64,000 bases of DNA from a virus (IMGVR_UViG_3300046804_004848:32001-96000), one strand, 5' to 3'. Shown: positions 19,528-56,827, numbered from the stretch's first letter. The notes: generated by a model not told the origin, from the letters alone. Program-made: numbers and translations.

Positions 19528-20201
19528 AAAAACGTATAGCATTATTTCAACACGATCCTGAATGCTCAATTTGGTGCTGCAACGGTATGATAAATGCCTT
19601 GCAGCAATCCTACAAAATCACTTGTTGGTCAACTAATGATAATATATATAAAGTACTACTAAAAACTGATATTCTTGCCTTCCCAGGTGGTATCGGTTCA
19701 AGCGATAAATTCTACAAATTCTTCTCACACGAAACTATAACTGCAATACAAAACTTTGTAACCAATGGTGGTTACTATTTGGGTATTTGCATGGGCGCAT
19801 ATTGGGCATCACATTATTACTTTAACATACTTAAAAGTGTAGAGGCTGTGCAATATATTAAGCGACCTGATACAGAAATTAAACGATCATATGCTACAGT
19901 TGCTAATGTACAATGGTTGCATGATGAAGAAGAAATGTTTTTTTATGATGGATGTTCATTGATTGGTAATGAACGTAAGTTTAAAGTAATCTCACGATAT
20001 TCTAATAATGATCCTATGGCAATTATACAAAACAACATAGGTATTATTGGGTGCCACCCTGAAAGTGAGAAGTTTTGGTACAATAAGTACAAATATATAA
20101 AGCAGCATTGGCACCATGGTAGGCACCATATGCTGCTATTAGACTTTGTTAATCGTCTTTCTTCAAACCAAACAACTGTAATAAATTCAAGAAAATATTG
20201 A
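19524..20201 (+). CDS. BPL-N / class I glutamine amidotransferase-like protein
   Basis: FPGG, GGYYLGICMGAY nucleophile elbow and GCHPE motifs. Confidence 0.75.
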   Translation: MKKRIALFQHDPECSIWCCNGMINALQQSYKITCWSTNDNIYKVLLKTDILAFPGGIGSSDKFYKFFSHETITAIQNFVTNGGYYLGICMGAYWASHYYFNILKSVEAVQYIKRPDTEIKRSYATVANVQWLHDEEEMFFYDGCSLIGNERKFKVISRYSNNDPMAIIQNNIGIIGCHPESEKFWYNKYKYIKQHWHHGRHHMLLLDFVNRLSSNQTTVINSRKY

Positions 20202-20835
20202 TAAAATCAAGATACAGTGTTAACGCACCTAATGATTCTACTCTAGCAGTTGCACCTTCTTCCATAATCATTTCACGAATTTTCTGTGTGTCATACGCAG
20301 TTAAACCAAGAAAAATAATAATAGCAAGTGCACTAATAACCATAGCAGCAACACTGCTACCAATAAAGATATTAATAATAGAGGCGATAACAATAGCAAT
20401 AAGCCCAACAAACAGAAACTTACCAATACTATCAAGATTCTTTTTAGTAAAGTAACCATAAAAACTCATCGTTCCAAATAAAACTGCTGCACCCATAAAT
20501 GCAGTAAAAATACTACCCATTTGGTATACTGCAAAGATTGTAGCAAAACTTAAACCCATTAGTGCAGCAAAACCTAGTAGCATCAATAGTGCAACCTCTT
20601 TAGATTGTACTTGTGATAATCCATAACTTACAGCAAACACTGCAACTAATGGAGCAAAAATAACAATCCATTTAATAAAACCTGTAAAAAAGAACTGTAA
20701 TAACTCAGGGGTAGTTCCAACCCAATAAGAAACAAGCATACTTACAACAACAGCAAGTGACATGTTTTTATACACACCTGCCATTGCTGAATTAATCTCA
20801 CTAGCCGTAGGGTATGTAATTGATTGTGAAAACAT
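20149..20835 (-). CDS. Bax inhibitor-1/YccA family membrane protein
   Basis: About seven TM segments; GLTAYDTQKI and GALTLYLDFINIF motifs. Confidence 0.92.
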   Translation of the reverse strand: MFSQSITYPTASEINSAMAGVYKNMSLAVVVSMLVSYWVGTTPELLQFFFTGFIKWIVIFAPLVAVFAVSYGLSQVQSKEVALLMLLGFAALMGLSFATIFAVYQMGSIFTAFMGAAVLFGTMSFYGYFTKKNLDSIGKFLFVGLIAIVIASIINIFIGSSVAAMVISALAIIIFLGLTAYDTQKIREMIMEEGATARVESLGALTLYLDFINIFLNLLQLFGLKKDD

Positions 20836-20864: not shown

Positions 20865-20880
20865 GATATTTATATAAATA
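20865..20880. promoter_or_regulatory. Back-to-back late promoters (TATAAATA on both strands)
   Basis: GATATTTATATAAATA. Confidence 0.5.
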
Positions 20881-20963: not shown

Positions 20964-21242
20964 CTACTTTCGCCGTTGGTCTTTTAGATGCTCAGGAACC
21001 TTTGAACGGTAATCCACTCCATCAATCGGTGTGTAATCTTTAGTCAGTGGTTGTTTTAATAAACTATCACCATACTTCAAACCAATGTAACTAATAACTT
21101 TTTCAACACCTTTTAAAGGTTTAAGTTGAATAAAACAATGTTCTTTCCATGTTAAGACAGTAAGCAAAAATGGTTTGATATTAGTATCTTTAATAATATC
21201 ATCAAACTTATCACTTTCACGCTTAAAAATTATAGTTTCCAT
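20964..21242 (-). CDS. Divergent member of the LRW small-protein family with C-terminal extension
   Basis: Internal ISYIGLKYG matches the family end motif. Confidence 0.45.
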   Translation of the reverse strand: METIIFKRESDKFDDIIKDTNIKPFLLTVLTWKEHCFIQLKPLKGVEKVISYIGLKYGDSLLKQPLTKDYTPIDGVDYRSKVPEHLKDQRRK

Positions 21243-21243
21243 A

Positions 21244-21435
21244 TCAATACCTTAAACTAAACCATGTGGCATACTTATCGTCATAAATATATAAAACAAT
21301 TTTATGATAATTTCCATAAAACACCCATGTTTGAGGTGAAGGTTGTCCCATCATTTTCCTACATTGTTTTAAAAAATCACTAATAGGACCTACCTCCCTT
21401 ACGGTGAATTCACGCTGAAAAAGTAGGTTTCTCAT
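21244..21435 (-). CDS. LRW-family small protein
   Basis: Ends YDDKYATWFSLRY. Confidence 0.65.
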   Translation of the reverse strand: MRNLLFQREFTVREVGPISDFLKQCRKMMGQPSPQTWVFYGNYHKIVLYIYDDKYATWFSLRY

Positions 21436-21436
21436 G

Positions 21437-21808
21437 TCAGTATCTTTTAATTACATTGAATGTGTGAATTTGATCAACATAGTCTGCTAACTCGCATGCT
21501 TTGCTGTAATCATCAAGTATGATTGCTTTTAGTGATCCATGGTCTAATAATTTTAAATGAACATCTTCTTCTGTTGTTATCAAAATATCGTTTGATAAAT
21601 TAATTAGCATCCAAGAATTTACAGTGTTTGGGTTATGTTCGTAAAACCCCAATGTAATATAATCTAATTTTAAATTCTTGATACACCAATTTACCATCTT
21701 CACTTTACCATTAGGGTTGGAAATACCTGTAGGGTATTCATCCCAAGTTACTGCATATCGTGATTGAAAAGGTTTTATTCGCATACTATCCCCACATGTT
21801 AGTTCCAT
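21437..21808 (-). CDS. Hypothetical protein, possibly a divergent LRW-family member
   Basis: MVNWCIKNL helix; ends FNVIKRY. Confidence 0.5.
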   Translation of the reverse strand: MELTCGDSMRIKPFQSRYAVTWDEYPTGISNPNGKVKMVNWCIKNLKLDYITLGFYEHNPNTVNSWMLINLSNDILITTEEDVHLKLLDHGSLKAIILDDYSKACELADYVDQIHTFNVIKRY

Positions 21809-22008
21809 CGCATTGCAAAAAAGGTTAGAATAGATTCTTCTTTAAAGTAAAAATCAGACTTATAAAAACCATAAACTACATTCCACTTATTTCTTCTTTC
21901 ACCAAACTTTTCAATTAACCATAGTTCAATATCAATAATTTGAGAATCAGCAGGATAGTTTACTGTAATTTTATAAGGCCAAATTTCTTTTTTAAGTCTT
22001 CTCATCAT
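21799..22008 (-). CDS. LRW-family small protein
   Basis: IELWLIEKFG..W..FYFKEESILTFFAMRWN. Confidence 0.7.
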   Translation of the reverse strand: MMRRLKKEIWPYKITVNYPADSQIIDIELWLIEKFGERRNKWNVVYGFYKSDFYFKEESILTFFAMRWN

Positions 22009-22032
22009 TATATCATAACATAGTAAAAATGA

Positions 22033-22272
22033 TTATTCTTTATCTTCATTGGCAGCATCCAAAAAATCTAATAACTCTATAGATGGGTGTGGGTAGATAC
22101 CGTATCTGCTGCCAAGTTGTCCTGGGTCATTGCTGTTGGTGCATCCTAATCTATGATCAGTAGCGTGTGGACAACGTTTGTTACCACAGGTATCACATAC
22201 GATAAAGGTACTGATAAACTTGGTAAAATTTGGTTTGAGGCATTCAAAACATTGACACTCCTTAGTATTCAA
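22033..22272 (-). CDS. Cys/His-rich putative Zn-binding protein
   Basis: CQCFEC and CDTCGNKRCPHATDH..CTNSN motifs. Confidence 0.65.
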   Translation of the reverse strand: MNTKECQCFECLKPNFTKFISTFIVCDTCGNKRCPHATDHRLGCTNSNDPGQLGSRYGIYPHPSIELLDFLDAANEDKE

Positions 22273-22273
22273 T

Positions 22274-22459
22274 CTACGTCCACCTCAATATAAACATCAT
22301 ATAATCACTTTCTTTTTCAAATGCAAAAACACCTTCACCTACATATTGAGAATGTGTGGCACCTATCTTTTCATGGCACCACGATATTACATCATACCAA
22401 CCACGTTTACCACCATCAGGAGGACAAATAGATGCAATATACGGATATTTAGGATTCAT
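22274..22459 (-). CDS. LRW-family small protein
   Basis: VISWCHEKIG..VFAFEKESDYMMFILRWT. Confidence 0.7.
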   Translation of the reverse strand: MNPKYPYIASICPPDGGKRGWYDVISWCHEKIGATHSQYVGEGVFAFEKESDYMMFILRWT

Positions 22460-22670
22460 ATTTTAACCGAAATAATGTAGAGTACTGTTCATCGTAAAAT
22501 GTAAAGATAACTTTTTTTGGAGTAATTCTATATTTTTCATAATCATATACTGATGGAATATATTTAAAATCAAAATGTTCTCCTTGATTAAATCCTGAGG
22601 CACGTAGTTCACGCACAATATCCATATATTGTGATAATTCTTTACCTTCAATGACTACATCAATAGCCAA
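22449..22670 (-). CDS. LRW-family small protein
   Basis: VIFTFYDEQYSTLFRLKYES. Confidence 0.65.
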   Translation of the reverse strand: MAIDVVIEGKELSQYMDIVRELRASGFNQGEHFDFKYIPSVYDYEKYRITPKKVIFTFYDEQYSTLFRLKYES

Positions 22671-22671
22671 T

Positions 22672-22920
22672 TTATCTCCATCTTAAATTATATAAAAATT
22701 CATGTTCAGGCTCTTTAAAAGTTACTATAAGTGTAGGAGGCAATCCTTGTATTCTAAACTTCCATGTTTCTTTATCCATACTGCGCCATTCTAAAAATTG
22801 AGCCACTGTACTTTTATTAAACGGTCTACCATCATTGGTATAATTTCTTTGTATAGTTTCATCCAACCATTTTAATTGTTCTTCCCATTCTTTTTTAAAA
22901 GGACTATCAAAATTATACAT
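22672..22920 (-). CDS. LRW-family small protein
   Basis: Likely start MYNF (TAATG coupling); ends VTFKEPEHEFLYNLRWR. Confidence 0.65.
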   Translation of the reverse strand: MYNFDSPFKKEWEEQLKWLDETIQRNYTNDGRPFNKSTVAQFLEWRSMDKETWKFRIQGLPPTLIVTFKEPEHEFLYNLRWR

Positions 22921-23135
22921 TATGCCCATCTCAAAGTAAACCAAACAGCATCTTGGCTATGCTGAAAACATACTATGATTTTATGACTTTGTTGGCTGTA
23001 ATAGGTATACCAAGTTTCACCGTATCTACCTAAATGTCGCCTACACCATTCATGTATAGCATCTTCATGACTTTTAGTCAATATAGGTTCAATTTCTATA
23101 CGATGTTCAAAATCTTGTGGTCTTACTACGCCCAC
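22920..23135 (-). CDS. LRW-family small protein
   Basis: IHEWCRRHLG..W..VCFQHSQDAVWFTLRWA. Confidence 0.7.
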   Translation of the reverse strand: MGVVRPQDFEHRIEIEPILTKSHEDAIHEWCRRHLGRYGETWYTYYSQQSHKIIVCFQHSQDAVWFTLRWA

Positions 23136-23136
23136 C

Positions 23137-23364
23137 TTACGCCCACCTCAATATAAACCAATTTAAGCTATGCTCATCTTCAAATATCACTTTATCGGGG
23201 TCACGAAAGTTTGCGGGAACATATTTTGCTTTATATGGCTTGAGTTTTTGGTTAAGTATTCTTAATGCTATATCATGATCAGGATTATCCTGATTGGCCT
23301 TTACAAAGTTTTGCCAATGTTTGGGACAATTTATAAGCATACTCTCTAAGTAAAAACCAATCAT
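23137..23364 (-). CDS. LRW-family small protein
   Basis: Likely start MIGF (ATGA coupling); ends VIFEDEHSLNWFILRWA. Confidence 0.7.
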   Translation of the reverse strand: MIGFYLESMLINCPKHWQNFVKANQDNPDHDIALRILNQKLKPYKAKYVPANFRDPDKVIFEDEHSLNWFILRWA

Positions 23365-23570
23365 GACCACCTCAAGGCAAACCACATGGCATCTCTGCTA
23401 TCTTCGAATTGAATATACTTTGTATCTGACCAACCAGGATTGTGATAATAGCGTCCCTGACAATGTTCTTCCAACCAACGATCCACATTATAATCTAGTA
23501 GACTGCGAATATGTACTGCTAACTGCCCTTGTTCCAATCTATGATAAACAACTGTATGTAGAGCCATCAT
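23361..23570 (-). CDS. LRW-family small protein
   Basis: Start MMAL; VDRWLEEHC..IQFEDSRDAMWFALRWS. Confidence 0.7.
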   Translation of the reverse strand: MMALHTVVYHRLEQGQLAVHIRSLLDYNVDRWLEEHCQGRYYHNPGWSDTKYIQFEDSRDAMWFALRWS

Positions 23571-23833
23571 GACCACCTCAATATAAACCAATTAGCATCA
23601 CGTTCATTTTCGAACCAAAATATGTTACCAGTCCAAGTATAGTGTTTCCCGCCAAATTCATGCTCACACCATTTACGTACATCATGCAAATCAACTAAAA
23701 GACTTTGACCTGTCAATGGAACACTATAATAGCCACCCTCAGCTAACCTATTGCTCCACCTTGTAATAGTTGGAGCAGAAAGCCCATCATAATGCTTCCA
23801 AGCTGCAATAAAATCTTGGATACAATCTTTCAT
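23567..23833 (-). CDS. LRW-family small protein
   Basis: Start MKDC; VRKWCEHEFG..FWFENERDANWFILRWS. Confidence 0.7.
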   Translation of the reverse strand: MKDCIQDFIAAWKHYDGLSAPTITRWSNRLAEGGYYSVPLTGQSLLVDLHDVRKWCEHEFGGKHYTWTGNIFWFENERDANWFILRWS

Positions 23834-24117
23834 GACCACCTCAATAAAAACATATTAATATCATCTTCATTGGTAAATCCCCATATTTCACCATCATTAC
23901 CACGCATGAAACATCGTGTTTTCCCAATCAATAATTTATCTGACCATTCCCAAAAATCACTTTTGTTCCAACGTTGCATCACAGGAATAAACAAAAAATA
24001 TTGACATTGTTCACCTAAACTTACTTCAGGTATCCATAATGGGCTAGTATTATTTGTACCTATCTTAGGCCAATGTTTATTAGCATATTTTATAAATTCT
24101 GTTCTAGTTAATAGCAT
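23830..24117 (-). CDS. LRW-family small protein
   Basis: FWEWSDK..WGFTNEDDINMFLLRWS. Confidence 0.7.
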   Translation of the reverse strand: MLLTRTEFIKYANKHWPKIGTNNTSPLWIPEVSLGEQCQYFLFIPVMQRWNKSDFWEWSDKLLIGKTRCFMRGNDGEIWGFTNEDDINMFLLRWS

Positions 24118-24118
24118 A

Positions 24119-24358
24119 TTAAGAATAATTTAACATAAACCAAGTATAATGTTCTGCACTTTTAAAAATCATACCTTTTAACGCATGTCCATTATAAACA
24201 AGGTTGATACCATAATTATCATAATACCAATCACAAGCTTGAATCCTAGAATCAATACCCAATTTTGGTACACTTTTTTGTCCTGAACCTTCCCACAAAT
24301 TATATAAAACTTGTATTACTTCACGATTTTTTTCAACAAAATATGCCATTATCGCCAC
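24119..24358 (-). CDS. LRW-family small protein
   Basis: MIFKSAEHYTWFMLNYS. Confidence 0.65.
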   Translation of the reverse strand: MAIMAYFVEKNREVIQVLYNLWEGSGQKSVPKLGIDSRIQACDWYYDNYGINLVYNGHALKGMIFKSAEHYTWFMLNYS

Positions 24359-24576
24359 ACTAAATTAAACCATACAAAATCACGTTCATGTCTAAATTTC
24401 ACCTCAGTATGCGCATGGAAAAAACGCCAACGACAATGTTTTTCACATCCTTCCACATTAGCGTATAACCAATCAAGGACTTCTTCATAATTACCACTGT
24501 TGACATGTGCTAGATACCACCCATTACAATTAGTATCCCATCCCCATACATGAGCAAGGTATCGTCTATCACTCAT
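24349..24576 (-). CDS. LRW-family small protein
   Basis: VLDWLYANV..VKFRHERDFVWFNLVWR. Confidence 0.7.
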   Translation of the reverse strand: MSDRRYLAHVWGWDTNCNGWYLAHVNSGNYEEVLDWLYANVEGCEKHCRWRFFHAHTEVKFRHERDFVWFNLVWR

Positions 24577-24578
24577 GG

Positions 24579-24779
24579 TTACTTCAATAAATCTAACGCA
24601 GTAGCATACTCCATCACGTAATCAACATCCCACGGTTGTTTCCAAGTAATACGTACTCTACGTTTGTAGCATTTTTTCAACCATAGCATGTTACCTGAAA
24701 TAGTGACTTTAGGCAATAATGCATAAGTTTCTACCCAATCGTAGCAACCTTCTTTATCAACCTCTTTAGTTTCAATCAT
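24579..24779 (-). CDS. Hypothetical protein (not LRW family)
   Basis: Likely start MIETKE overlapping the upstream stop; W..YALLP...LWLK..YKR motif. Confidence 0.55.
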   Translation of the reverse strand: MIETKEVDKEGCYDWVETYALLPKVTISGNMLWLKKCYKRRVRITWKQPWDVDYVMEYATALDLLK

Positions 24780-24921
24780 CAATTCTTGTGTAGTTGAGGA
24801 CATTACCTACTCCATATTGTGCCTCACCAAGCATTTTAGCTTCATAGTCATTATTTGCCCAAATGATGGTGTTAGCAGTTTGATAGTCGTTAAGTCGTAC
24901 CCAAAGTTGATATTTGTACAT
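24772..24921 (-). CDS. 49-aa protein, not in ORF track (MYKYQLWVRLNDYQTANTIIWANNDYEAKMLGEAQYGVGNVLNYTRIDD)
   Basis: Open frame fills the gap in the array. Confidence 0.65.
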   Translation of the reverse strand: MYKYQLWVRLNDYQTANTIIWANNDYEAKMLGEAQYGVGNVLNYTRIDD

Positions 24922-24926
24922 TTCAT

Positions 24927-25157
24927 TTACATCCATTTTAACATAAAAAACACGTAGTTGTCAAGCGTTTCAAACTTGATATAACGTGCGCCCCATGGTG
25001 CTGAATCATTTTCAGTCATAAATTGTGCCCCATAAGGTTCCAACATAATATTTATTTGATAGATTGGAAAGTAGATTGCATCATTTTGCTTTAAAAAATT
25101 AATCCACCATATAGGTTTTGGCTCAGTCTCAGTTTCTTCAAATAATTTAATAAGCAT
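24927..25157 (-). CDS. LRW-family small protein
   Basis: PIWWINF resembles PKHWQNF in 23137; ends IKFETLDNYVFFMLKWM. Confidence 0.7.
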   Translation of the reverse strand: MLIKLFEETETEPKPIWWINFLKQNDAIYFPIYQINIMLEPYGAQFMTENDSAPWGARYIKFETLDNYVFFMLKWM

Positions 25158-25159
25158 GA

Positions 25160-25390
25160 TTACATATATTTCAACGCAAATAAGTTGTAACTTGCTTCAT
25201 TATGAAACTCAATATACGCAATACAATTAAATTGTTTAATTCCAACAGATAACACGTAATGGTGTACAAAACAATCATGTCTTTTTTCAAAAGCAGGTAC
25301 AAATTCATTGCTTTCTTGGTCAATACCTAAATCTTTTATTGCGTTTTGGCAATCAAAAGAATCAACAATAATAGACATAATTAACTCCAA
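25160..25390 (-). CDS. LRW-family small protein
   Basis: IEFHNEASYNLFALKYM. Confidence 0.65.
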   Translation of the reverse strand: MELIMSIIVDSFDCQNAIKDLGIDQESNEFVPAFEKRHDCFVHHYVLSVGIKQFNCIAYIEFHNEASYNLFALKYM

Positions 25391-25626
25391 GTAAGTAGAA
25401 AAAATGATTGTAGTTCTGCTGTGGTAAATTGTAGAACAATACCTTCTAATTTAAAATTATTTACCCCAATATTTTTTAGTAACCAACTTGTAATTTCTGC
25501 ATCATTTTCTACCCACCATGTAAAATCTATGATAAAACAACAGTGTTCATGAGTAGAAATATTAGGCACCCCTGAAAAAACTAAAAAACGTTGACCTACA
25601 TCCATTTCATTGCAAAAAAAGTACAA
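25381..25626 (-). CDS. LRW-family small protein
   Basis: ITSWLLKNIG..LQFTTAELQSFFLLTWS. Confidence 0.65.
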   Translation of the reverse strand: MYFFCNEMDVGQRFLVFSGVPNISTHEHCCFIIDFTWWVENDAEITSWLLKNIGVNNFKLEGIVLQFTTAELQSFFLLTWS

Positions 25627-25787
25627 TCATTTTCATTACTAAAACTTACTACATAGTGTCCTGCTTGTTCACCGCCTACATCTAAATTAGCAAAGTGCCA
25701 TTCGCCTGTGCAATTATGTTGACACCAATCAAAAATATCGCCTAACTTACCAAATGGTATGGTAACTGTTAAGGTATGATTATCCAT
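25596..25787 (-). CDS. LRW-family small protein
   Basis: IFDWCQHNCTGEW..VSFSNENDCTFFAMKWM. Confidence 0.7.
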   Translation of the reverse strand: MDNHTLTVTIPFGKLGDIFDWCQHNCTGEWHFANLDVGGEQAGHYVVSFSNENDCTFFAMKWM

Positions 25788-26283
25788 GTGAAATAACTTC
25801 TACTCCACTTTTTTCAAGAAATTTTATCCCTGCATCGTCCCTATAGTGTGTACCAAAATACACACGACGAATACCTGCACTGTATATACTTTTTGCACAT
25901 TCAAGACACGGTGCATGAGTAATAAACATTGTTGCTCCATTCCCACCCTCTGATCCTTTAGCTAGTTTGTCCAAGGCGTTCCGCTCAGCATGCAGTACTT
26001 CAGGTCTAGTTTTTAGTCTGTATCTTCTTTCTACACTGTAACCACTAATCCAAAAATTACCTAACAATGGATAGTCTTGTAATTTAGCACTAGTATCATT
26101 GATAGGCATAAATTCAGTATATTCACAGCCATTGTCCCATCCACTAGGCATACCATTGTAGCCAATACTAATGATACGATCATCTTTTACAATGATCGCA
26201 CCAACTTTTAATCGCACTGCATAACTAAGTTCAGATACTCGTTTTGCTATATCAGCATAAAGTTGTATAAATTTTTCTTTCAT
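25780..26283 (-). CDS. dCMP deaminase
   Basis: VGAIIV, GYNG, HAERNA and PCLEC motifs; start MKEKF at 26283. Confidence 0.92.
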   Translation of the reverse strand: MKEKFIQLYADIAKRVSELSYAVRLKVGAIIVKDDRIISIGYNGMPSGWDNGCEYTEFMPINDTSAKLQDYPLLGNFWISGYSVERRYRLKTRPEVLHAERNALDKLAKGSEGGNGATMFITHAPCLECAKSIYSAGIRRVYFGTHYRDDAGIKFLEKSGVEVISHG

Positions 26284-27014
26284 TTGTAGTTTGATAAAAA
26301 TTCTAGCGTAGTTTTTGTTGCTTGCTCTGTGGCAGTAGCACTGTATTGTGTAACATGACCCCATCTTGCGTTATTGTATGAACGGTCAAAACTATGATAT
26401 GCCCCATCATAAACAAATACTTGCTGTAATTTATTTAAGTCTTTAAATGATTCGCATAAACTACTTGGAGTCCATGTATCAAGTGAACCAATATGTATTT
26501 GTGATGGTACTTTTACATGGTGGTAGGAATAATTGCATTTAGGATAATACGCTATCACACCATCTAATTTTGTATTTGATATAATTCCTGCCTCTAATAC
26601 ACTAGCAGCACCGTGACTAAAACCTATTCCAATTACTGCTCCACGATGCCATGATTGTTGTTTTACCCATGCAGCCATTGCGTTAATATCCTCACCACGT
26701 TGGGCAAATGTCAATTTATTTGAGTTGCATGTTGTTGGTAAATTTCTTGCACCTAAACTATCAGGAATAACGACATTAAATCCTGCCTTAAATAACAAAC
26801 TTACCCATTGATAATCTTCAGTATTAATCCCATTACAACCATGTGCAAGTACTACTGTGGGAGAGGGAACATCTTGCAATTTTTTATCAAACGCTACTTT
26901 AATAGGTACTACAGAACTAAGGTAAGGATCAATCACCTCAATCTTTGTCCACCAAAATGCTGCATGTACGATGTTTGTAAACAATAGTGATAAAAAAATA
27001 AGAATGATTTTCAT
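26280..27014 (-). CDS. Secreted alpha/beta hydrolase (dienelactone hydrolase-like)
   Basis: Signal peptide from MKIILIF (27014); HGCNG, GFSHG, DTWTP and GAYHSFD motifs. Confidence 0.8.
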   Translation of the reverse strand: MKIILIFLSLLFTNIVHAAFWWTKIEVIDPYLSSVVPIKVAFDKKLQDVPSPTVVLAHGCNGINTEDYQWVSLLFKAGFNVVIPDSLGARNLPTTCNSNKLTFAQRGEDINAMAAWVKQQSWHRGAVIGIGFSHGAASVLEAGIISNTKLDGVIAYYPKCNYSYHHVKVPSQIHIGSLDTWTPSSLCESFKDLNKLQQVFVYDGAYHSFDRSYNNARWGHVTQYSATATEQATKTTLEFLSNYK

Positions 27015-27549: not shown

Positions 27550-27933
27550 TTACTCTTTTACAGGTAAACATTCAAAATCATGGAATACAAACTTTTTACC
27601 GTCAACCACAATCATACCTACAAATTCGTTTTTAGTGTTGGTACAAAAGTTTTTTGCAGACTCATCAAGCGTAGAACCTTGGCAAACAAATTTATCATCT
27701 TCACAATTATAGAATAACATCAGTCCGTCTACGTGTTCAACACGCATGATACAGGCTGGCATGCTGACACGGGTAATTTTTTCTGATGATTCTCCATCTT
27801 GTGTTTTTGCTTTTAATTCTTGTTTAAGTAGTTCGGTAACACGTTTTTGTAGTATTCGCATACCAAACATCGTACCCATAAAAAAACAGACTGCGTATGA
27901 TGCTGCTAATATTAGTAGGTTAATTTCGTTCAT
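27550..27933 (-). CDS. Membrane-anchored hypothetical protein
   Basis: N-terminal TM; TATAAATA 5 nt upstream of the ATG. Confidence 0.6.
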   Translation of the reverse strand: MNEINLLILAASYAVCFFMGTMFGMRILQKRVTELLKQELKAKTQDGESSEKITRVSMPACIMRVEHVDGLMLFYNCEDDKFVCQGSTLDESAKNFCTNTKNEFVGMIVVDGKKFVFHDFECLPVKE

Positions 27934-28032
27934 GTTGGTATTTATAAAAAGAAAAGAACGGATTTTTAATAGATCCGTTCAAAACTATTTCAGGAGATAG
28001 AAATTGAGGGAGCATTGCACTCCCCATGTTGC

Positions 28033-32186: not shown

Positions 32187-32215
32187 AGTATATGATAAGT
32201 TTTATAGTTTGTCAA
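32187..32215 (-). promoter_or_regulatory. Sigma70 early promoter
   Basis: TTGACA-17-TATACT. Confidence 0.75.
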
Positions 32216-32421
32216 ACCCAATATAAACTAAAATTAAGCAAATCAGATTCTTGTTGGAAGGATACAACACGTTCATTAAAGTTAAATCCTTGTCTCCAAG
32301 TATACGGACCAACACAATATTGTTTTAACCAATTTAAAATTTCTTGTATATTATCTTTGTTCTGCACAACAATTTTCGTAACATGCATATAAGTAATACC
32401 TGGTTTGATGATTTCGTACAT
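32212..32421 (-). CDS. LRW-family small protein (dispersed copy)
   Basis: ILNWLKQYC.G..W..VSFQQESDLLNFSLYWV. Confidence 0.65.
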   Translation of the reverse strand: MYEIIKPGITYMHVTKIVVQNKDNIQEILNWLKQYCVGPYTWRQGFNFNERVVSFQQESDLLNFSLYWV

Positions 32422-32423
32422 AG

Positions 32424-32452
32424 ATTATACATATTTATGTACCTATTGTCAA
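32424..32452 (-). promoter_or_regulatory. Sigma70 promoter
   Basis: TTGACA-17-TATAAT (perfect consensus). Confidence 0.7.
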
Positions 32453-32456: not shown

Positions 32457-33239
32457 TTACGTAGCCCATTTCAAACTAAACATAGTTGCATGTTCATCAT
32501 TATCAAAACTGAACCCTACGGTGTGATACATGTCAGGTTTACATAGTAACTCATAAGATAACTTACTACCTTGTAACCAAGTAACCATATCATTAAAATA
32601 TGCCATACTTGGTAATTCTACAAAGACATAATGTTTTGTTGGTGGATTTATTACGTTAGCTATAATATTATCTTTTTTATTTGTAAGCGTAATAGATGCT
32701 CCGTTGTTCCACGTCATAATACAAGTACTATAAGGTAAACTGTAGGTAGTTTCTATAATGTTTTCTTCACATTCACTCCATAGAAAATCTTGTGCATCAA
32801 CATCAAAATCATTATATTTCTCATCATTTGGATCAACAGGGTATCCATTAAGTTCTCTAACAATTTCTTCTAAATCAACATCACTAATCCACTCCCAACC
32901 TTTACCATCTGCATCTTCATTACATAAATCAAGCAAAAAATCTTTATCATGTATGGTAAAGTAAAGTTGAGTATCACTTGTACGATTCTCACACATTGAC
33001 AGTGCTATGGCACAAACTGAGTCTGAATCCCAATAATTATAGTAATCTAATTCATTTAAGCTACCGCTTTTTTGTTGAATATAAATCCAACCTTTAGATT
33101 CTTCGTTAGATTGACCTACGACTTTATCATGATAAGTCCATTCACTTATTTCTGAAATCCAACCTGTTACCCCAATTTCTTTAGGTAACCCATAAAGATC
33201 AATAAATTTTTTAACTTGCTTATATGCTTTAGTGTTCAT
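32457..33239 (-). CDS. Acidic protein with C-terminal LRW-family domain
   Basis: Ends MVTWLQG..GFSFDNDEHATMFSLKWAT. Confidence 0.65.
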   Translation of the reverse strand: MNTKAYKQVKKFIDLYGLPKEIGVTGWISEISEWTYHDKVVGQSNEESKGWIYIQQKSGSLNELDYYNYWDSDSVCAIALSMCENRTSDTQLYFTIHDKDFLLDLCNEDADGKGWEWISDVDLEEIVRELNGYPVDPNDEKYNDFDVDAQDFLWSECEENIIETTYSLPYSTCIMTWNNGASITLTNKKDNIIANVINPPTKHYVFVELPSMAYFNDMVTWLQGSKLSYELLCKPDMYHTVGFSFDNDEHATMFSLKWAT

Positions 33240-33948
33240 TTTTCTTAAACCATTTTACAAAATTGCTATAGGATTTGACAAAAGTAAGGGTTCTTGTATC
33301 CTTTCCAACCCATTCATCCTTTGATATAACTTTTGTTTTTATATCAAAAAACGTGTCACTTGTGCTAATATATTGGACTAATGGAAAACCCGCAGGAATA
33401 AAAATTCTATATGGTTCGGGTTTGTGCTTAAACAAAATAAACACATTAGTGGTGTGACTGTAATAAAAATCAAGAAACCCAGGCATCACCGTGTAATTAA
33501 CTATGCCATGATGGTGATAAAATGGAGCAGTAGCATAAAAATTTGTAGGTTTTGATGCTTCTGCAACCCAAGGTGATTGTAATTTTAAGTGACTATACTC
33601 AGGGGCAAACTCACCAAATTGTTTACTATCATGGATGGTTCCACTTGAATTATTATGTGAAAAAAGATAGTTAAACGATTTATCAGGGTAAACATCTATA
33701 ACCAAATCGCACCACATAGGTAAAATTATACCATTTGTTAGCGTGTTTTTAATACCTGCACAACTCCTAACCGTTGGTGAATCCACCTCAATATTATAAT
33801 CCTGTTCTATTCTTTTATAAACAGGTTTTAATTTTTCAAACCATGATGGATAACATTTTGAGGTGTTTATTGGTGGTAATGCTTGGCTAATAATTCTATT
33901 TTCTTGTGTGCAAGAAAATGTTATACTAGTTTTTTTCTTAACAAACAT
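33229..33948 (-). CDS. Hypothetical protein, possibly dUTPase-like beta fold
   Basis: TVRSCAGI, GIILPMWCD, LKLQSPW, PGFLD and IPAGFPLVQ motifs. Confidence 0.5.
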   Translation of the reverse strand: MFVKKKTSITFSCTQENRIISQALPPINTSKCYPSWFEKLKPVYKRIEQDYNIEVDSPTVRSCAGIKNTLTNGIILPMWCDLVIDVYPDKSFNYLFSHNNSSGTIHDSKQFGEFAPEYSHLKLQSPWVAEASKPTNFYATAPFYHHHGIVNYTVMPGFLDFYYSHTTNVFILFKHKPEPYRIFIPAGFPLVQYISTSDTFFDIKTKVISKDEWVGKDTRTLTFVKSYSNFVKWFKKNEH

Positions 33949-41976: not shown

Positions 41977-42186
41977 CTAATAAAGTTTTGTAGGTAATTC
42001 CTGTGTACGTAAATATTTTTTCCAACGACTTACTGCTTTGCCTCTAGCAATTTTTCTAGCGATGCTAGGTTTAGTATACTCTTGACGATCACGTAATTCT
42101 TGCATAATACCACTTTCAAGAACTTTCTTCTTGAATTTTCTTATGCCACTTTCAAATGACTGTCCTTCACGTATTACAACTTTCAT
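41977..42186 (-). CDS. rpsU: Ribosomal protein bS21
   Basis: V..REGQSFES.IRKFKKKV..G...ELR.R..Y.KPS..RK. Confidence 0.88.
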   Translation of the reverse strand: MKVVIREGQSFESGIRKFKKKVLESGIMQELRDRQEYTKPSIARKIARGKAVSRWKKYLRTQELPTKLY

Positions 42187-43436
42187 TTCTTTCCTTTTTT
42201 CAATAAGGTTCCAAGATAAGATTCTGCTTTAGGTTCCCAAAGTTTATTTAGCAAATTTGGGTCAACAACATGACTTTTATCTATGATAATTTTTTGACCT
42301 TTTAAAAACTTAGTATAAAACATAACCTTAAGTAGCACACGCTCAATTTCACTTTGTAAACCACGTGCACCTGTTTTTAATTCTAAACAATTTTCAGCAA
42401 TTTGTTCAATGGCATCTGCTGTAAAACTTAACTCTATTTCATCCAAACTTAACAAATACTGATATTGCTCAATAAAATTGTTTTTAACTTTAGTCAAAAT
42501 TTGAACCAATTGTTCTTTAGTCAGTTCGTTAATAGAAACACGACATGTAAACCTACCTGTAAACTCAGGAATCATACCAAACTTGGTTAAATCATCAGGT
42601 GAAACTTGCGATAATATATGATCCATAGAAGCACTTTGTCCAACCATCGCAGAAAAACCAATACTATTACCATGCAATCTACGTGAAATAATATCGCTTA
42701 ATCCAACAAAAGCACCACCTGATATAAACAATATGTTTTTAGTATTGACTTCTAACATATCATTACTTGGATGTTTTCTTTTACCAAGCTGTGGTACTCT
42801 ACAAACAGTACCCTCTACAATTTTTAATAGTGCTTGTTGTACACCTTCTCCACTAACATCACGTGTAATACTTGCGCTTTCGCTTTTTCGTGCAATTTTA
42901 TCAACTTCATCTACAAAAATAATACCACGCTCTGCTCGCTCAATATCACCATCAGCAGCAGCTACTAATCGTTGTATCATACTTTCAACATCATCACCAA
43001 CATAACCTGCTTCAGTTAATGATGTGGCATCAGCAATAACAAATGGCACATCTAAATATTTTGCTACTGTTTTAGCCATTAGTGTCTTGCCACCCCCGCT
43101 TGCTCCGAGAATAAGTACATTGGCTTTTTGTATTTCTAACTCTTTAGTTTCTGCTGTGATGCGTTTGTAATGATTAGATACTGCCACACTAAGTAACATT
43201 TTGGCATTATCTTGTCCAATGATATATTGGTCTAAAAATGTTTTAATGTCATCAGCATAAAAACTTATTTTACGTGGTGAATCATCCTCAAGTGGTTCAT
43301 CATCCTTGAGCAAATCATTACATAAATCAACACAATCACTACATATTGCAGTGCCTTCACCGACAATAAGTTTCTTGACAACATTTTTATGTTTGCCACA
43401 AAAACTACACTCTTGAAAATGATAAACTTCACCCAT
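42183..43436 (-). CDS. clpX: Clp protease ATP-binding subunit ClpX
   Basis: CSFCGK Zn domain; GGGKT, DATSLTEAGYVG, DEVDKI, ITRDVSGEGVQQ, IGF and TGARGL motifs. Confidence 0.97.
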   Translation of the reverse strand: MGEVYHFQECSFCGKHKNVVKKLIVGEGTAICSDCVDLCNDLLKDDEPLEDDSPRKISFYADDIKTFLDQYIIGQDNAKMLLSVAVSNHYKRITAETKELEIQKANVLILGASGGGKTLMAKTVAKYLDVPFVIADATSLTEAGYVGDDVESMIQRLVAAADGDIERAERGIIFVDEVDKIARKSESASITRDVSGEGVQQALLKIVEGTVCRVPQLGKRKHPSNDMLEVNTKNILFISGGAFVGLSDIISRRLHGNSIGFSAMVGQSASMDHILSQVSPDDLTKFGMIPEFTGRFTCRVSINELTKEQLVQILTKVKNNFIEQYQYLLSLDEIELSFTADAIEQIAENCLELKTGARGLQSEIERVLLKVMFYTKFLKGQKIIIDKSHVVDPNLLNKLWEPKAESYLGTLLKKGKK

Positions 43437-52479: not shown

Positions 52480-52508
52480 ATTATGCCACAATATGGATAT
52501 ACTGTCAA
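52480..52508 (-). promoter_or_regulatory. Sigma70 early promoter
   Basis: TTGACA-gtatatccatattgtgg-CATAAT. Confidence 0.75.
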
Positions 52509-52516
52509 GCAGTTTT

Positions 52517-52729
52517 TTACCACTCATCAGTTGTTGTAATTGGGATACGAATTGTTGCCATTCTACCTTTAAATTGTTGATGAAATTCTAAGTCTACTTC
52601 ATACCCAATACCACTACCACCTGTTTTGATGATAGTAAAATGGTTGACTTCAAACTCTTTTAGAGTATCCATCAACTTTTGTAAGTCAGTATAATTAAGT
52701 GTTATTTTTTCTATCATTTCTTCGTTCAT
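52517..52729 (-). CDS. Hypothetical protein
   Basis: SGIG motif; ends DEW. Confidence 0.55.
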   Translation of the reverse strand: MNEEMIEKITLNYTDLQKLMDTLKEFEVNHFTIIKTGGSGIGYEVDLEFHQQFKGRMATIRIPITTTDEW

Positions 52730-52935
52730 AAATTGTACAATTGTTTAAGTTTGTTAGATATGGTTTTTTCAGGATCTTTGTATCCTTCAGTCCACCAAGC
52801 ATTTAGCATGCAATCATTTGCCACTGCCAATCCAATTTTTTCAATTGTATTTTCTAGTGGTAGATCTGATCCTACGATATAATCATGAGGTAAAATATTA
52901 TGTTCAGTGGCTATTTTAAGTAAACGTCTATTCAT
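52726..52935 (-). CDS. MNER-like small protein
   Basis: Start MNRRLLKIA after GGAG; IEKIG..VANDC. Confidence 0.5.
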   Translation of the reverse strand: MNRRLLKIATEHNILPHDYIVGSDLPLENTIEKIGLAVANDCMLNAWWTEGYKDPEKTISNKLKQLYNL

Positions 52936-53149
52936 CTCCACCCCAATCTTTAAAATCTGTGCACTCCTCAAAACCAAGTTTGTATGCATCATACTCAGGT
53001 GTACCTTGTAGGGCAACTACACGTTGAGTGCTATATGTTGCACCAACGAAGTAATGTGGGTCAAATACACGACCATAGTATGCATCTGCGTTACCACGAT
53101 CATAAGCACCACCATGGCGAGTATATTGTACAGTTAATTCAGTATACAT
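52928..53149 (-). CDS. Hypothetical protein
   Basis: RHGGAYDRG.AD.YYGR..PHY and AY..G......KDW motifs. Confidence 0.65.
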   Translation of the reverse strand: MYTELTVQYTRHGGAYDRGNADAYYGRVFDPHYFVGATYSTQRVVALQGTPEYDAYKLGFEECTDFKDWGGDE

Positions 53150-53151
53150 AA

Positions 53152-53394
53152 TTATACAACCTCCTTTTTCAACTTACGGATAATTTCTTCCTCTTGATTT
53201 AAAGTGGCAAGAACCATATTTTCAATCAAAACATTTTGCTGACGCTTGAGAAGCAATGGCATTATACCAACGATCACACTTTCCAAGTAACCTGCTTCAT
53301 AACTATGACTACCGTAGTTTTTATGACTAGCTTCACCAAAAGCTTTAAGAACAAGCTTCATAGTTTCTTGGTTTTTTAAGGTACATGTTCCCAT
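53152..53394 (-). CDS. Hypothetical early protein
   Basis: Start MGTC after AAGGAG; YGSHSY.AGYLES motif. Confidence 0.6.
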   Translation of the reverse strand: MGTCTLKNQETMKLVLKAFGEASHKNYGSHSYEAGYLESVIVGIMPLLLKRQQNVLIENMVLATLNQEEEIIRKLKKEVV

Positions 53395-53426
53395 TTTCTG
53401 CTCCTTGTTTGCTAATTTATGTAAGT

Positions 53427-53455
53427 ATAATAACACCAAAGAAAAACATTGTCAA
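53427..53455 (-). promoter_or_regulatory. Sigma70 early promoter
   Basis: TTGACA-17-TATTAT. Confidence 0.7.
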
Positions 53456-53508
53456 CAGAAATAAAATTTAAAGAATGCTTTTATTTGCTTGGGTAGATAA
53501 ATATATTA

Positions 53509-53976
53509 ATGATATATTATACATACGCATATTTAAGAATAGATGGCTCTCCATATTACATCGGAAAAGGTAAAGGAAAGCGAGCATATCAAAAGCACAA
53601 AACATTTAATCCTCCTAAAGATAAATCAAAAATAGTTTTTTTAGAAACTAATTTGACTGAACTTGGTGCCCTAGCTTTGGAGCGCAGGTATATTCGTTGG
53701 TATGGTCGTAAAGATATTGGAACAGGAATTCTCCATAATAAAACCGATGGTGGCGATGGGGCATCTTTTTTCGGGAAAGAAAATAATCAATTCGGTAAAA
53801 AAGGAGAATTAAGTCATTGGTTTGGGAAGAAACGTCCATGGACAGATGAACAAAGAAAGAAGCAATCAGAAGTTCAAAAGCATACTAAAAAATATATTAG
53901 GACTCCTGAACATAATGCTATGATGTCACAGCGAGTTAAAGAGGCATTGTCACGTAAAAAACTTATTCCTCACTAG
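53509..53976 (+). mobile_element. GIY-YIG-type free-standing homing endonuclease
   Basis: YYTYAY..PYYIGKG..R, A..LE..I..YGR, L.N.TDGGDG and NUMOD3-like tail; opposite strand to neighbours. Confidence 0.8.
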
Positions 53977-53992
53977 TTATCTAACAGAAACA

Positions 53993-54021
53993 AGTATAGC
54001 AAAATTAGGATAAGTTGTCAA
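53993..54021 (-). promoter_or_regulatory. Sigma70 promoter with TATCCTAAT, firing antisense into the GIY-YIG gene
   Basis: TTGACA-acttatcctaattttgc-TATACT. Confidence 0.75.
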
Positions 54022-54197
54022 GCAGTTTTTGGTTCTTTAACTTCAAAGACAAATGAGTTGTTTATTTGCTCACTGTTGTCATCAGGGCATTTAAATTTAA
54101 CTGAAGTACCACTATATTTAATTTCTTTGGTTTCAAGAATTTTGATGAAGTTTATATCATGGCGACCATCACAAGCATAGCATTTAACAAATTTCAT
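54018..54197 (-). CDS. Small Cys-containing protein
   Basis: Start MKFVKCYAC after AAGGA; FKCP motif. Confidence 0.55.
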   Translation of the reverse strand: MKFVKCYACDGRHDINFIKILETKEIKYSGTSVKFKCPDDNSEQINNSFVFEVKEPKTA

Positions 54198-54228
54198 CTC
54201 AAGTTCCTTATCAATCACTACAGAACAT

Positions 54229-54257
54229 AGTATAACAGGGTTCAAAAGACCTGTCAA
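54229..54257 (-). promoter_or_regulatory. Sigma70 early promoter
   Basis: TTGACA-17-TATACT; leader CTGTAGTGATTGAT. Confidence 0.75.
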
Positions 54258-54266
54258 CCTGTAGGG

Positions 54267-54488
54267 TCATTCAACTCCAAAATGTTTTTTAAGTTTACTT
54301 TCTGTAATTGAACCCACTTGACTAATTTCAATGCATTCCTTAACAATCAACTCGGCAAACTTTTGATTATAAATTTCCCTACCCTCAGTAAAAGAATAAA
54401 GACGATTATGGACTCGTTCCAGATGTGCTAATTCATCCTCAGCAAATCGTTCAGCCTGTTCAGCCAGTTCCTTAATTCGTTCGTTCAT
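54267..54488 (-). CDS. MNERIKEL-family small protein
   Basis: MNERIKELAEQAE...KFAELIVKEC...KKHFGVE. Confidence 0.7.
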   Translation of the reverse strand: MNERIKELAEQAERFAEDELAHLERVHNRLYSFTEGREIYNQKFAELIVKECIEISQVGSITESKLKKHFGVE

Positions 54489-54498
54489 TCTTCTAATC

Positions 54499-54582
54499 CT
54501 AATTCTTTTGCCAGCCCCAAACAAAACCAGTGACAAAACCTATCACATAACAGGCCAGCAGTGCCAAACCAATCTCGTTCAT
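54499..54582 (-). CDS. 27-aa TM peptide, not in ORF track (MNEIGLALLACYVIGFVTGFVWGWQKN)
   Basis: ATGA-coupled to the upstream gene; GGAG SD. Confidence 0.45.
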   Translation of the reverse strand: MNEIGLALLACYVIGFVTGFVWGWQKN

Positions 54583-54926
54583 TCTTCAACTCCGAAATGT
54601 TCTTTTAGACCTTGAATATTATCATAACACTTTTCAGCACAAATTTCAAAATTTGATTGAAAAACAGGATCTTCTTCTGATTCAGAAAGACCAAACAATC
54701 TTTCTGCTTCATTGTCGAGATATTGGCAACATTCTTTCACAATCAACAGGGCGAACTTTTCTCTACCTTTTTCACACGCAAACAAAAGACTGATGATTTC
54801 TGCTGGAGTGGCTACTCGCCATTCGCCATCTTCTCGTCGAAGAATTTCACGATCATTGTAATCCCACATGCCATCTATTACAGGTAGTTCAGCCTGTTCA
54901 GCAAGTTCTCTAATTCGTTCGTTCAT
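54579..54926 (-). CDS. MNERIKEL-family small protein
   Basis: MNERIRELAEQAE...KFALLIVKEC...KEHFGVEE. Confidence 0.7.
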   Translation of the reverse strand: MNERIRELAEQAELPVIDGMWDYNDREILRREDGEWRVATPAEIISLLFACEKGREKFALLIVKECCQYLDNEAERLFGLSESEEDPVFQSNFEICAEKCYDNIQGLKEHFGVEE

Positions 54927-55164
54927 TTTTTTGTTCCAATTTATGCTTCTCAGCAGCTTGTGTAGCTAAAATATAACGTGCGCTATCACTAATTTCTACC
55001 TTAACCGCAGGTTCAACTTTACGTGGTTCAGGCTCACTTTTTCTACCTGATACTCGTTGTTGTAAATCATGTTGAACACGTTGAGTCATGGTCATACGCC
55101 ATAACTCCATCATCACGTTACGTGCTCCACTTGAATCTGCTGAACCTACTGATTGAACTTTCAT
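54910..55164 (-). CDS. Hypothetical protein with VEIS..AR motif (FlgM-N-like)
   Basis: AVKVEISDSAR; similarity is tentative. Confidence 0.45.
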   Translation of the reverse strand: MKVQSVGSADSSGARNVMMELWRMTMTQRVQHDLQQRVSGRKSEPEPRKVEPAVKVEISDSARYILATQAAEKHKLEQKNERTN

Positions 55165-55171
55165 ATGTACC

Positions 55172-55468
55172 TTACTTAACTAAGGTTGACAATTTCACAG
55201 CAGCACTAACTTTGCTGATTTTGGTATATGCTTCAGCAAGCGATTCTACTTTGGCATCACCAAGTACATCACGCACCATAGCTTCATACTTAACACTAGC
55301 ACGTTCGTGTTGGGGAACTACAGTGGCAACCGTAGCAGTACCGAAAAACGTCATGCTATCAAAATTAGCAGCAGTAATCAACGCAGTTTCAACCTTCTTT
55401 TCTGCTACCTTCAATAGAGCAATTTCAGCACGAATCTTGGCAAGTTTGTTTACTAGGGCTTTACTCAT
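55172..55468 (-). CDS. Hypothetical early protein
   Basis: GGAG SD; own promoter; N-terminal coiled coil. Confidence 0.6.
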   Translation of the reverse strand: MSKALVNKLAKIRAEIALLKVAEKKVETALITAANFDSMTFFGTATVATVVPQHERASVKYEAMVRDVLGDAKVESLAEAYTKISKVSAAVKLSTLVK

Positions 55469-55504
55469 TTCAATCTCCGTTAAGAATTAATCACCACAAA
55501 AACT

Positions 55505-55533
55505 ATTGTACATCAATTAAGATATATTGTCAA
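55505..55533 (-). promoter_or_regulatory. Sigma70 early promoter
   Basis: TTGACA-atatatcttaattgatg-TACAAT. Confidence 0.75.
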
Positions 55534-55889: not shown

Positions 55890-55918
55890 GTCTATCTCCT
55901 ATATCTGACTATAGAGAA

Positions 55919-55947
55919 ATTATAGTAAAAATTGGATATACTGTCAA
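55919..55947 (-). promoter_or_regulatory. Sigma70 early promoter
   Basis: TTGACA-gtatatccaatttttac-TATAAT. Confidence 0.8.
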
Positions 55948-55962
55948 GTTGTATTTTTACAA

Positions 55963-56753: not shown

Positions 56754-56827
56754 GTTTTTATTCTTCGGCATATGGGTACATAAATATTGCCATATACATC
56801 TCACTTATATCTACACTAAGGGCACAT

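Follow-up and report, generated by a model that had tools for sequence, protein, structure and literature searches.

A tandem array of old paralogues in an uncultured giant phage represents a widespread, unnamed protein family with a shared C-terminal motif

The stretch of DNA analysed here (the window; 64,000 nucleotides, all positions counted from its first base) comprises bases 32001-96000 of one 137,959-base virus contig, IMGVR_UViG_3300046804_004848, and carries on its minus strand, between 21244 and 25787, a tandem array of sixteen small genes. The array represents a real and widespread phage protein family that still lacks a name; its genes stand in a probably coupled, shuffling arrangement, and these are kinds of genome organisation already known. 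The ending common to its products, F-x-L-(R/K)-W, appears both to close a small fold and to spell the ribosome-binding site of the next gene. Overall, a chained array of old paralogues that is translated by coupling, shuffles its genes and encodes a battery of binders is the explanation that we hold to be somewhat closer to right than wrong.

Between 19500 and 27500, sixteen open reading frames (ORFs) of 61-95 aa on the minus strand end in F-x-L-(R/K, rarely T/V/N)-(W/Y) followed by zero to two residues. A MAFFT alignment, with a mean column identity of 18%, reveals a common pattern comprising a helix that contains W-(C/L)-x-x-x-x-G, after a few residues a further W, and then hydrophobic-x-F-x-x-E-x-D and F-x-L-R-W. 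We searched the 875 ORFs of at least 35 aa in the contig with two profiles. The first, built from the sixteen array ORFs, added two members on which it had not been trained, 32212-32421 (E 6e-6) and the C-terminus of 32457-33239 (E 7e-5), with the next ORF at E 1.1; this second group of members, a pair, lies 6.5 kb from the array. The second, independent profile was built from 88 of 101 outside sequences, each less than 45% identical to every member in the window, and recovered all 18 members with E values from 2.1e-22 to 2.9e-3, the next contig ORF scoring 0.28. These profile scores place the grouping of the sixteen far beyond chance.

An earlier note on this DNA had proposed that the ORFs form one homologous family, which the profile of outside sequences bears out; the four motif strings it quoted are all found in the window, and so are the three unrelated ORFs it had seen among the array genes (24772-24936, 24579-24803 and 22033-22272). 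Its count of 16-18 paralogues holds for the sixteen clear ones. The two doubtful ORFs fail the profile tests (21437-21808 at E 0.26-0.28; 20964-21242 with zero score), so that the array starts at 21244 and not at 20964, as had been assumed. The earlier total had also missed 32212-32421 (69 aa) and 32457-33239 (260 aa).

The same note had named the finding that would overturn it, namely that the members share no fold and that their ending is convergence driven by Shine-Dalgarno (SD) signals. In a fuller form of this rival reading, the ending is forced by SD and overlap geometry and the ORFs are either not one family or not real genes. The codons of L-R-W are indeed strongly biased towards SD-forming spelling, and at the codon level the idea is thus correct. 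However, profile similarity also covers helix 1 (W-C-x-x-N-x-G), the W of strand 2, the F of strand 3 and the E-x-D-A before the motif, a conserved span of about 45 residues. Moreover, the motif is kept where there is no close downstream gene (32212-32421) and where it has a non-SD spelling (AAA TGG), which argues against mere convergence. Of the measurable comparisons, only one gives a ratio of non-synonymous to synonymous substitution rates (dN/dS) that is not well below 1, and hundreds of homologues occur outside the window. Convergence is effectively refuted by these sequence comparisons.

The array and the members outside it are listed below, all on the minus strand; in this text L, P and X numbers denote contigs from other phages, cluster representatives and sequencing runs, respectively.

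21244-25787, minus: whole tandem array; 16 family genes, 3 unrelated ORFs and the doubtful non-member ORF 21437-21808
25596-25787, minus: family member, 63 aa, end FFAMKWM, the member modelled; the ATG of the next gene lies within its K-W codons; E 9e-11
25381-25626, minus: family member; an internal ATG (MDVGQ...) is the likely start, compare cluster representative P0062; E 2.4e-4
25160-25390, minus: family member, weakest scorer, end LFALKYM; E 2.9e-3
24927-25157, minus: family member (profile); most of it (24967-25159) is missing in L003, L004 and one run X19 contig (contig comparison)
24935-24964, minus: sigma-70-like match, TTGACA, 18 nt, TAAAAT, 11/12 with TG, overlapping the 3' end of gene 24927-25157; pattern match only
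24772-24936, minus: unrelated small ORF, kept in relatives; dN/dS 0-0.1
24579-24803, minus: unrelated small ORF (ORF listing)
24349-24576, minus: family member, end WFNLVWR; E 3.6e-8
24119-24358, minus: family member, end WFMLNYS; E 2.1e-4
23830-24117, minus: family member (profile), 95 aa; junction sequence TTG AGG TGG TCA TGA
23567-23839, minus: family member (profile) with a conserved N-terminal extension; L005 orthologue at 60% identity (pairwise comparison)
23361-23591, minus: family member, FEDxxDA type; at another array position in L003 (orthogroup order)
23137-23385, minus: family member (profile), end WFILRWA
22920-23135, minus: family member; unit 22930-23146 missing from the 10,177-nt run X6 contig (contig comparison)
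22672-22944, minus: family member, end LYNLRWR; E 2.3e-5
22449-22670, minus: family member, end LFRLKYES; E 1.1e-4
22274-22459, minus: family member, 61 aa, end MFILRWT; E 1.9e-14
22033-22272, minus: unrelated Cys-rich ORF, 79 aa, several C-x-x-C pairs, no Pfam match; strain-level indel (ORF listing, Pfam)
21799-22008, minus: family member, MRRLKKEIWPY type, top scorer; E 2.1e-22
21437-21808, minus: 123-aa ORF, not detectable as a member; E 0.26-0.28
21244-21435, minus: family member, end WFSLRY; E 1.6e-9
20964-21242, minus: 92-aa ORF, non-member; zero profile score
32212-32421, minus: family member outside the array, 69 aa, end FSLYWV, no close downstream gene; E 5.3e-12
32457-33239, minus: 260-aa protein with a C-terminal family domain (residues ~207-259); E 2.8e-7

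The 260-aa protein is the sole long member in the contig and has an orthologue in L004 (2138-2920). Its N-terminal 200 aa returned neither a Pfam match nor a usable match in the ESM Atlas.

The junctions between array genes carry a second layer of conservation. Within the window, AGG encodes 6 of the 9 motif arginines and TTG 8 of the 16 motif leucines, against a background of 67/1266 and 381/2498, respectively, in the long ORFs of the contig. A set of 82 non-redundant junctions, taken from the window and 13 related loci, has TTG in 55/82 and AGG in 50/63, and the next ATG starts 2 nt past the W codon in 36. The preferred spelling is TTG-AGG-TGG, and the next ATG overlaps either the stop (TGG-NNA-TGA) or the K-W codons. 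The word TTGAGGTGG occurs six times in the window, where 0.42 copies are expected, and five of these lie at array gene ends. It contains GAGGTG, which is complementary to the 3' tail of 16S rRNA. The sixth copy, at 33783-33791, stands out of frame in ORF 33229-33948 and could be an internal ribosome-binding site or a chance occurrence. SD tetramers are found at -16 to -4 of 39% of 76 long ORFs, compared to 8% of random sites; when their starts are counted over -20 to -4 they peak at -12 to -10, and in the junction GAGG starts at -9. To judge from these codon counts, the motif codons are clearly under selection for an SD-forming spelling.

Translational coupling is typically marked by ATGA or TAATG stop/start overlaps and an SD inside the upstream gene. 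At the sequence level the array displays the same features, with stop/start overlaps or gaps of a few nucleotides and a GAGG-type SD about 9 nt upstream, in the preceding ORF. Unlike in textbook coupling, the SD of the array is built from conserved Leu-Arg-Trp positions, and motif and signal are locked together across hundreds of members. Codon bias, stop/start overlap and SD use together make it likely that the array genes are translated as a coupled chain, in which the ribosome-binding site for each downstream gene would sit within the gene before it. Apart from the 9-nt junction word, the array showed no repeats at the DNA level.

As a protein element, the ending is predicted to belong to the domain itself. 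AlphaFold2, run on the 63-aa member with a 119-row alignment (predicted local distance difference test, pLDDT, 77.7; predicted template modelling score, pTM, 0.57), returned strands (E) and helices (H) in the order E6-11, H15-25, E30-35, E44-49 and H52-62. The model predicts a core of ~55 residues with a β-α-β-β-α arrangement, a ferredoxin-like half sandwich, whose second and last helix, residues 52-62 of 63, is the F-x-L-(R/K)-W ending. In the alignment, W21, F49, F58, L60 and W62 are near-invariant. These hydrophobic positions span helix 1, strand 3 and helix 2, and because they are spread across the domain the motif is probably part of it rather than a free tail. The truncated ferredoxin-like pattern proposed in the earlier note is thus seen in the AlphaFold models, as a prediction that carries no functional information. 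A natural two-domain member was modelled with the same pattern in both halves (pLDDT 84-96 for the block in the second half), at a pTM of 0.52, which makes the placement of the halves relative to each other untrustworthy.

The earlier note had further taken the ending for a fixed docking helix, through which variable adaptors would join one partner, for example the phage ClpX or ClpP. A phage ClpX gene does lie in the window (42183-43436), and conservation in the family is highest at the C-terminus, which nearly always ends one residue after the W. On the other hand, the models make the motif helix 2 of the domain, where it would pack against the remaining near-invariant hydrophobics, and in natural two-domain proteins it also occurs internally. 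Stop/start overlap and SD geometry account for its exact end no less well than docking would. We therefore regard a common docking element as very improbable. Neither the Clp proteins (ClpX, ClpP, ClpS) nor RNA nor any defence system was linked to the family by the analyses run, which included no Clp-binding test.

Structural comparison places the fold in a crowded neighbourhood. A Foldseek search against the PDB returned nothing at E<=1e-3, the best matches being the PII-like protein SbtB (TM 0.65) and KH domains (E 0.19-0.5). Exhaustive comparison with VIA-align gave a top Z of 7.3 for the ACT domain of TyrA, followed by RRM, KH and PII domains (SbtB at Z 5.3-5.7) at Z 5-7 over 55-63 residues; it produced no match at Z>=8, and the tool itself describes this range as a 'common arrangement'. 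The predicted fold resembles ferredoxin-like sandwiches (ACT, RRM, KH, PII) in its order of elements and at Z 5-7.3. Unlike them, it has no last strand, and neither a sequence relationship to them nor any of their family-defining motifs was found. The BFVD matches belong to uncultured Caudovirales and are uncharacterised (best E 8.5e-5, 32% identity), accompanied by weak, unconfirmed neighbours in the jumbo phages Atu_ph07, BcepSauron, PA5oct and pT24.

The two best neighbours raise the possibility of small-ligand sensors of the ACT/PII type, in which oligomerisation would supply the missing sheet and the ligands would be metabolites or nucleotides. The TyrA ACT domain (Z 7.3, 7.1) and SbtB speak for it, as does the adjoining dCMP deaminase gene (25780-26364), which puts the array in a nucleotide-metabolism neighbourhood. 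However, no Pfam match and no conserved ligand-binding motif accompany the resemblance, the β2-β3 loop, which occupies the position of the PII T-loop, varies in length and sequence, the loop after strand 1, another ligand site in such domains, is variable too, and sixteen different sensors in a row are hard to motivate. Such a role appears improbable, if a little less so than docking. A homodimer prediction for the 63-aa member scored 0.01 against a mark of 0.42 and weighs neither way on oligomers.

The distribution of the family outside the contig is broad. Among 1.84 billion cluster representatives, a profile search found 688 proteins at E<=1e-3, five of them at E<=1e-10. Of the best 150 of the 688, nearly all are 55-112 aa long and carry the domain at the very C-terminus; one, the 699-aa Cys-rich repeat protein P0042, was judged a false positive. 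Exactly one residue, mostly S or A, follows the W in 114 of 146 listed representatives. A few of the 150 are natural tandem proteins of two domains (P0040, P0050, P0057 and P0071) in which the first L-R-W motif is internal, and these probably arose through stop loss between neighbouring array genes. No fused forms were present among the 2063 candidates of a word-indexed search for 'longer' homologues, which is weak evidence.

The earlier note could not assign the array to a named family, and every collection searched bears this out. Ten window members found nothing below E 0.018 in Pfam-A, PHROGs v4 and NCBIfam 20, and a scan of 119 family members gave no match in PHROGs or NCBIfam and three unrelated single-member matches in Pfam (E 4.7e-4 to 4.5e-3). 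A profile search of PDB sequences reached a best, non-significant E of 0.077. The nearest entries in the ESM Atlas are clusters of viral hypothetical proteins, one of which has 6418 members; their score of 0.89 falls short of the 0.9 mark, and they serve as a lead only. Word-indexed homologue searches retrieved close orthologues only, all unnamed or 'hypothetical'. Against 50,697 phage records, megablast with the array gave no matches; in tblastn searches with five single members, three had no matches, one found only itself and the fifth matched phage Phosso weakly (E 0.3). In prokaryote genomes, one degenerate pattern matched 335 stretches, none of which encodes a relative, although this is weak evidence. 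Literature searches, outside supplements, turned up no paper on the family or on an 'LRW motif' in phages; the supplements of PMC7824862 may list the family.

Phosso, a cultured Sinorhizobium phage (PV764938.1; 469 kb), gave 38 profile matches at E<=0.01 in several clusters. Its family genes have F-K-L-R-W-S-like tails and 4-nt overlaps and are all annotated 'hypothetical protein'. In the two clusters inspected they are interspersed with tRNA genes, with genes for His-, Cys- and Ser-tRNA synthetases and with a peptidyl-tRNA hydrolase gene; a CysRS query for relatives of Phosso returned no useful record. Arrays also occur in more distant contigs, with 5 members in L010, 12 in L011, 18 in L012 and 20 in L013. 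The array of L010 lies near a MoxR-vWA gene pair, and that of L013 is flanked by a ResIII/DEAD helicase gene on one side and by primase/DnaB genes on the other.

The setting of the Phosso genes bears on the strongest rival to binders of varied targets, according to which the products would be nucleic-acid binders of RRM, KH or ACT type that regulate phage or host RNA, for instance as translational repressors or tRNA-associated factors. In line with it are these tRNA-related neighbours, the RRM and KH structural matches (Z 5.2-6.6) together with the KH hits in Foldseek, and a BFVD neighbour in a Caulobacter phage that is annotated as peptidyl-tRNA hydrolase (E 0.043). The Z range, however, is that of a common arrangement; the model has three strands and none after helix 2, so that the fourth strand is missing, and no RRM, KH or ACT match in Pfam was found among the 119 members. 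The RRM fold itself is four-stranded (β-α-β-β-α-β), with the aromatic motifs RNP1 and RNP2 on strands 3 and 1. Charge is inconsistent as well, with isoelectric points (pI) from 4.4 to 9.5 in a single array and 43% of 147 representatives acidic, and the conserved positions are hydrophobic, with no conserved basic patch. We consider nucleic-acid binding unlikely, albeit less so than sensing or docking.

The source of the contig is an uncultured, giant freshwater phage. Relatives reach 361 kb, and a 158-kb relative has an estimated completeness of 45% in CheckV, so that the contig is best seen as a fragment of a giant phage genome. The window sequence has a GC content of ~34%, and among the products encoded are ClpX, PhoX, PstS-like, dCMP deaminase, DNA ligase and DnaE-like proteins.

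Within this lineage, the array genes are old. The top paralogue pairs within the array score 18-39 bits, with identities mostly below 40% over partial alignments. By comparison, 23361-23591 matches an L013 gene with 70 bits and 50% identity over 66 aa, while its best paralogue in the array reaches 35.8 bits; 23567-23839 and 23137-23385 match L005 with 104 and 82 bits, respectively. As better partners are found in other phages than in the array, the duplications predate the split of the phage lineages. A recently amplified 'genomic accordion' was rejected on the same low pair scores, the closer relatives elsewhere and the absence of near-identical copies. In gap-free comparisons with L001-L004 and measurable dS, dN/dS of family genes is 0.03-0.56 (flanking genes, 0.06-0.21), apart from one noisy exception, 21244-21435 against L001, at 1.5 with a dS of 0.06 and very few changes. 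Values well below 1 in all other measurable comparisons indicate real genes under purifying selection.

The gene content of the array differs between relatives. Related IMG/VR contigs hold 18, 23 (L003), 21, 14, 7, 3 and 3 members, with 7 more in the truncated contig L002. The order of orthogroups shows a common backbone with a variable middle, in which extra genes are inserted in relatives and the counterpart of 23361-23591 sits at a different place in L003. Homology blocks in BLASTN break at 25161/24971, 23573-23567, 23393-23369, 23158-23137, 22941-22914, 22280-22267, 22027-22015 and 21797. With one exception, each of these breaks lies between about -7 and +47 nt from a family stop codon; the exception, 22027-22015, is located shortly before the start of gene 21799-22008.

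Similar changes are present in natural populations. The stretch is represented in 20 sequencing runs from 9 studies, none of them listed as RNA; two labelled RNA-Seq are probably DNA. The 10,177-nt contig of run X6 skips 22930-23146, which is exactly one gene, and the join falls within the neighbours' L-R-W codons, with 5 letters shared. A contig of run X19 skips 24967-25159. Bases 22016-22266, the Cys-rich ORF, are absent in contigs of runs X3, X6 and X9, from three studies, and the L001 homology blocks break on both sides of this ORF, at 22267 and 22015. Joints in public contigs with a small side (<31) were disregarded as unreliable. These alignments indicate that whole genes are gained, lost and moved both among relatives and in natural populations, and that the breakpoints lie in or near the conserved 3' coding stretch. 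More speculatively, the Leu-Arg-Trp joint could be a selected cassette boundary, at which one 9-15-nt word would end the stable mini-fold, provide the next gene with its ribosome-binding site and start context, and offer microhomology for recombination; we hold this to be doubtful at present.

Candidate promoters point to the host-type transcription machinery. Near-consensus sigma-70 sites (TTGACA-17-TATAAT, at least 11 of 12 positions) number 30 in the contig, compared to 9.2 +/- 2.0 in 30 block shuffles. On the minus strand of the window they are located at 24964 (inside the array), 28331 (upstream of it), 30581, 32215, 32452, 45303 and 52508-60283. These sites cluster in blocks of small ORFs, like the early promoters of T4-type phages. 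A 12/12 site at 32424-32452 (minus strand) ends 3 nt before the annotated ATG of 32212-32421, and in view of this distance the true start of that gene may be a later Met, or its transcript may be leaderless. The T4-type late word TATAAATA occurs six times in the window, where 12.9 copies are expected, and not once in the array. It is found directly upstream of the gene for a Bax1-I-like membrane protein (20149-20835; word at 20867-20880) and of ORF 27550-27933.

With regard to function, the products may form a battery of small stand-alone binders that combine one rigid core with differing surfaces, N-termini and β2-β3 loops. Each binder would target a different macromolecule of the host or of a rival phage and thereby serve host take-over or counter-defence, with expression from host-type promoters in an accessory, hyperplastic part of the genome. 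This proposal draws on the predicted rigid core, the N-termini and β2-β3 loops, which are variable in the family, the wide pI range of the window members, the old and conserved paralogues, their strain-level presence and absence, and the accessory location near replication and nucleotide-metabolism genes. It is the best of weak options and remains tentative, though ahead of nucleic-acid binding. DNA-mimic anti-restriction proteins were considered and dropped, as only some members are acidic.

Several observations weigh against the overall explanation or temper it. The fold match is generic, with no hit at Z>=8, and so points to no activity; confidence in the models is moderate, and burial of the W, F, L and W side chains is deduced from their conservation. 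All homologues are annotated 'hypothetical', so that no annotation bears on function, and dN/dS gives no sign of the pervasive positive selection expected of an arms race. The promoter calls are pattern matches only, and one copy of the late-type word TATAAATA (27939-27946) stands on the array strand upstream of the array. Breakpoints at gene ends would also be left by selection for intact genes, so that a role of the junction in recombination is no more than plausible. Finally, the family has so far been seen only in phage sequence, a weak conclusion drawn from the single-pattern scan of prokaryotes and the taxon labels of the Atlas.

Lineage-specific expansions are familiar in large DNA viruses, as in the multigene families of African swine fever virus and poxviruses. 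The array is like these expansions in having tens of copies of a small domain and copy numbers that differ among relatives. Bacillus phage G carries a zinc-ribbon expansion of ~35 copies (Iyer et al. 2021, PMC7824862). Unlike those zinc ribbons, the array family is a different and unnamed one, whose copies are old and have orthologues in other phage lineages; the main-text passages of PMC7824862 covered here make no mention of it.

The closest described behaviour comes from T4-type phages, whose hyperplastic regions contain promoter-early stem-loop (PeSL) cassettes that undergo modular shuffling (Arbiol et al. 2010, PMC2839356; Comeau et al. 2014, PMC4122927). Such regions are similar to the array in that runs of small, non-essential and functionally uncharacterised ORFs are present, a short boundary repeat coincides with indels and replacements between close relatives, and strong sigma-70-like promoters lie near. 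However, the PeSL joint is an intergenic unit of promoter and terminator (PMC2839356, PMC4122927), whereas the array joint consists of the coding 3' end of the upstream gene and the SD and start of the next. PeSL regions have a strong sigma-70-like promoter and a stem-loop terminator between most cassettes; the array has one site with at least 11 of 12 matching positions (24964-24935), and most of its junctions leave no intergenic space. In further contrast to those regions, the shuffled genes of the array all belong to one protein family, and their shuffling is read from sequence breaks.

With hundreds of clusters at 50% identity, the family ranks among the larger still-unnamed pieces of phage 'dark matter'. 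A protein motif that is locked to the translation signal of its neighbour is an unusual form of dual coding. It puts limits on protein evolution as well as on gene order, and could be the reason why the accessory arrays of giant phages stay expressible while they are shuffled. If the joint is a selected cassette boundary, giant phages of several lineages would trade, reorder and expand a library of mini-binders without breaking its expression, and the array would be a homologous-recombination counterpart of the integron, built into a protein family. Since giant phage genomes hold dozens of copies each, and one of these phages is cultured, function is directly testable. If the products are host-directed binders, each array would be a catalogue of small inhibitors on a common, probably very stable scaffold.

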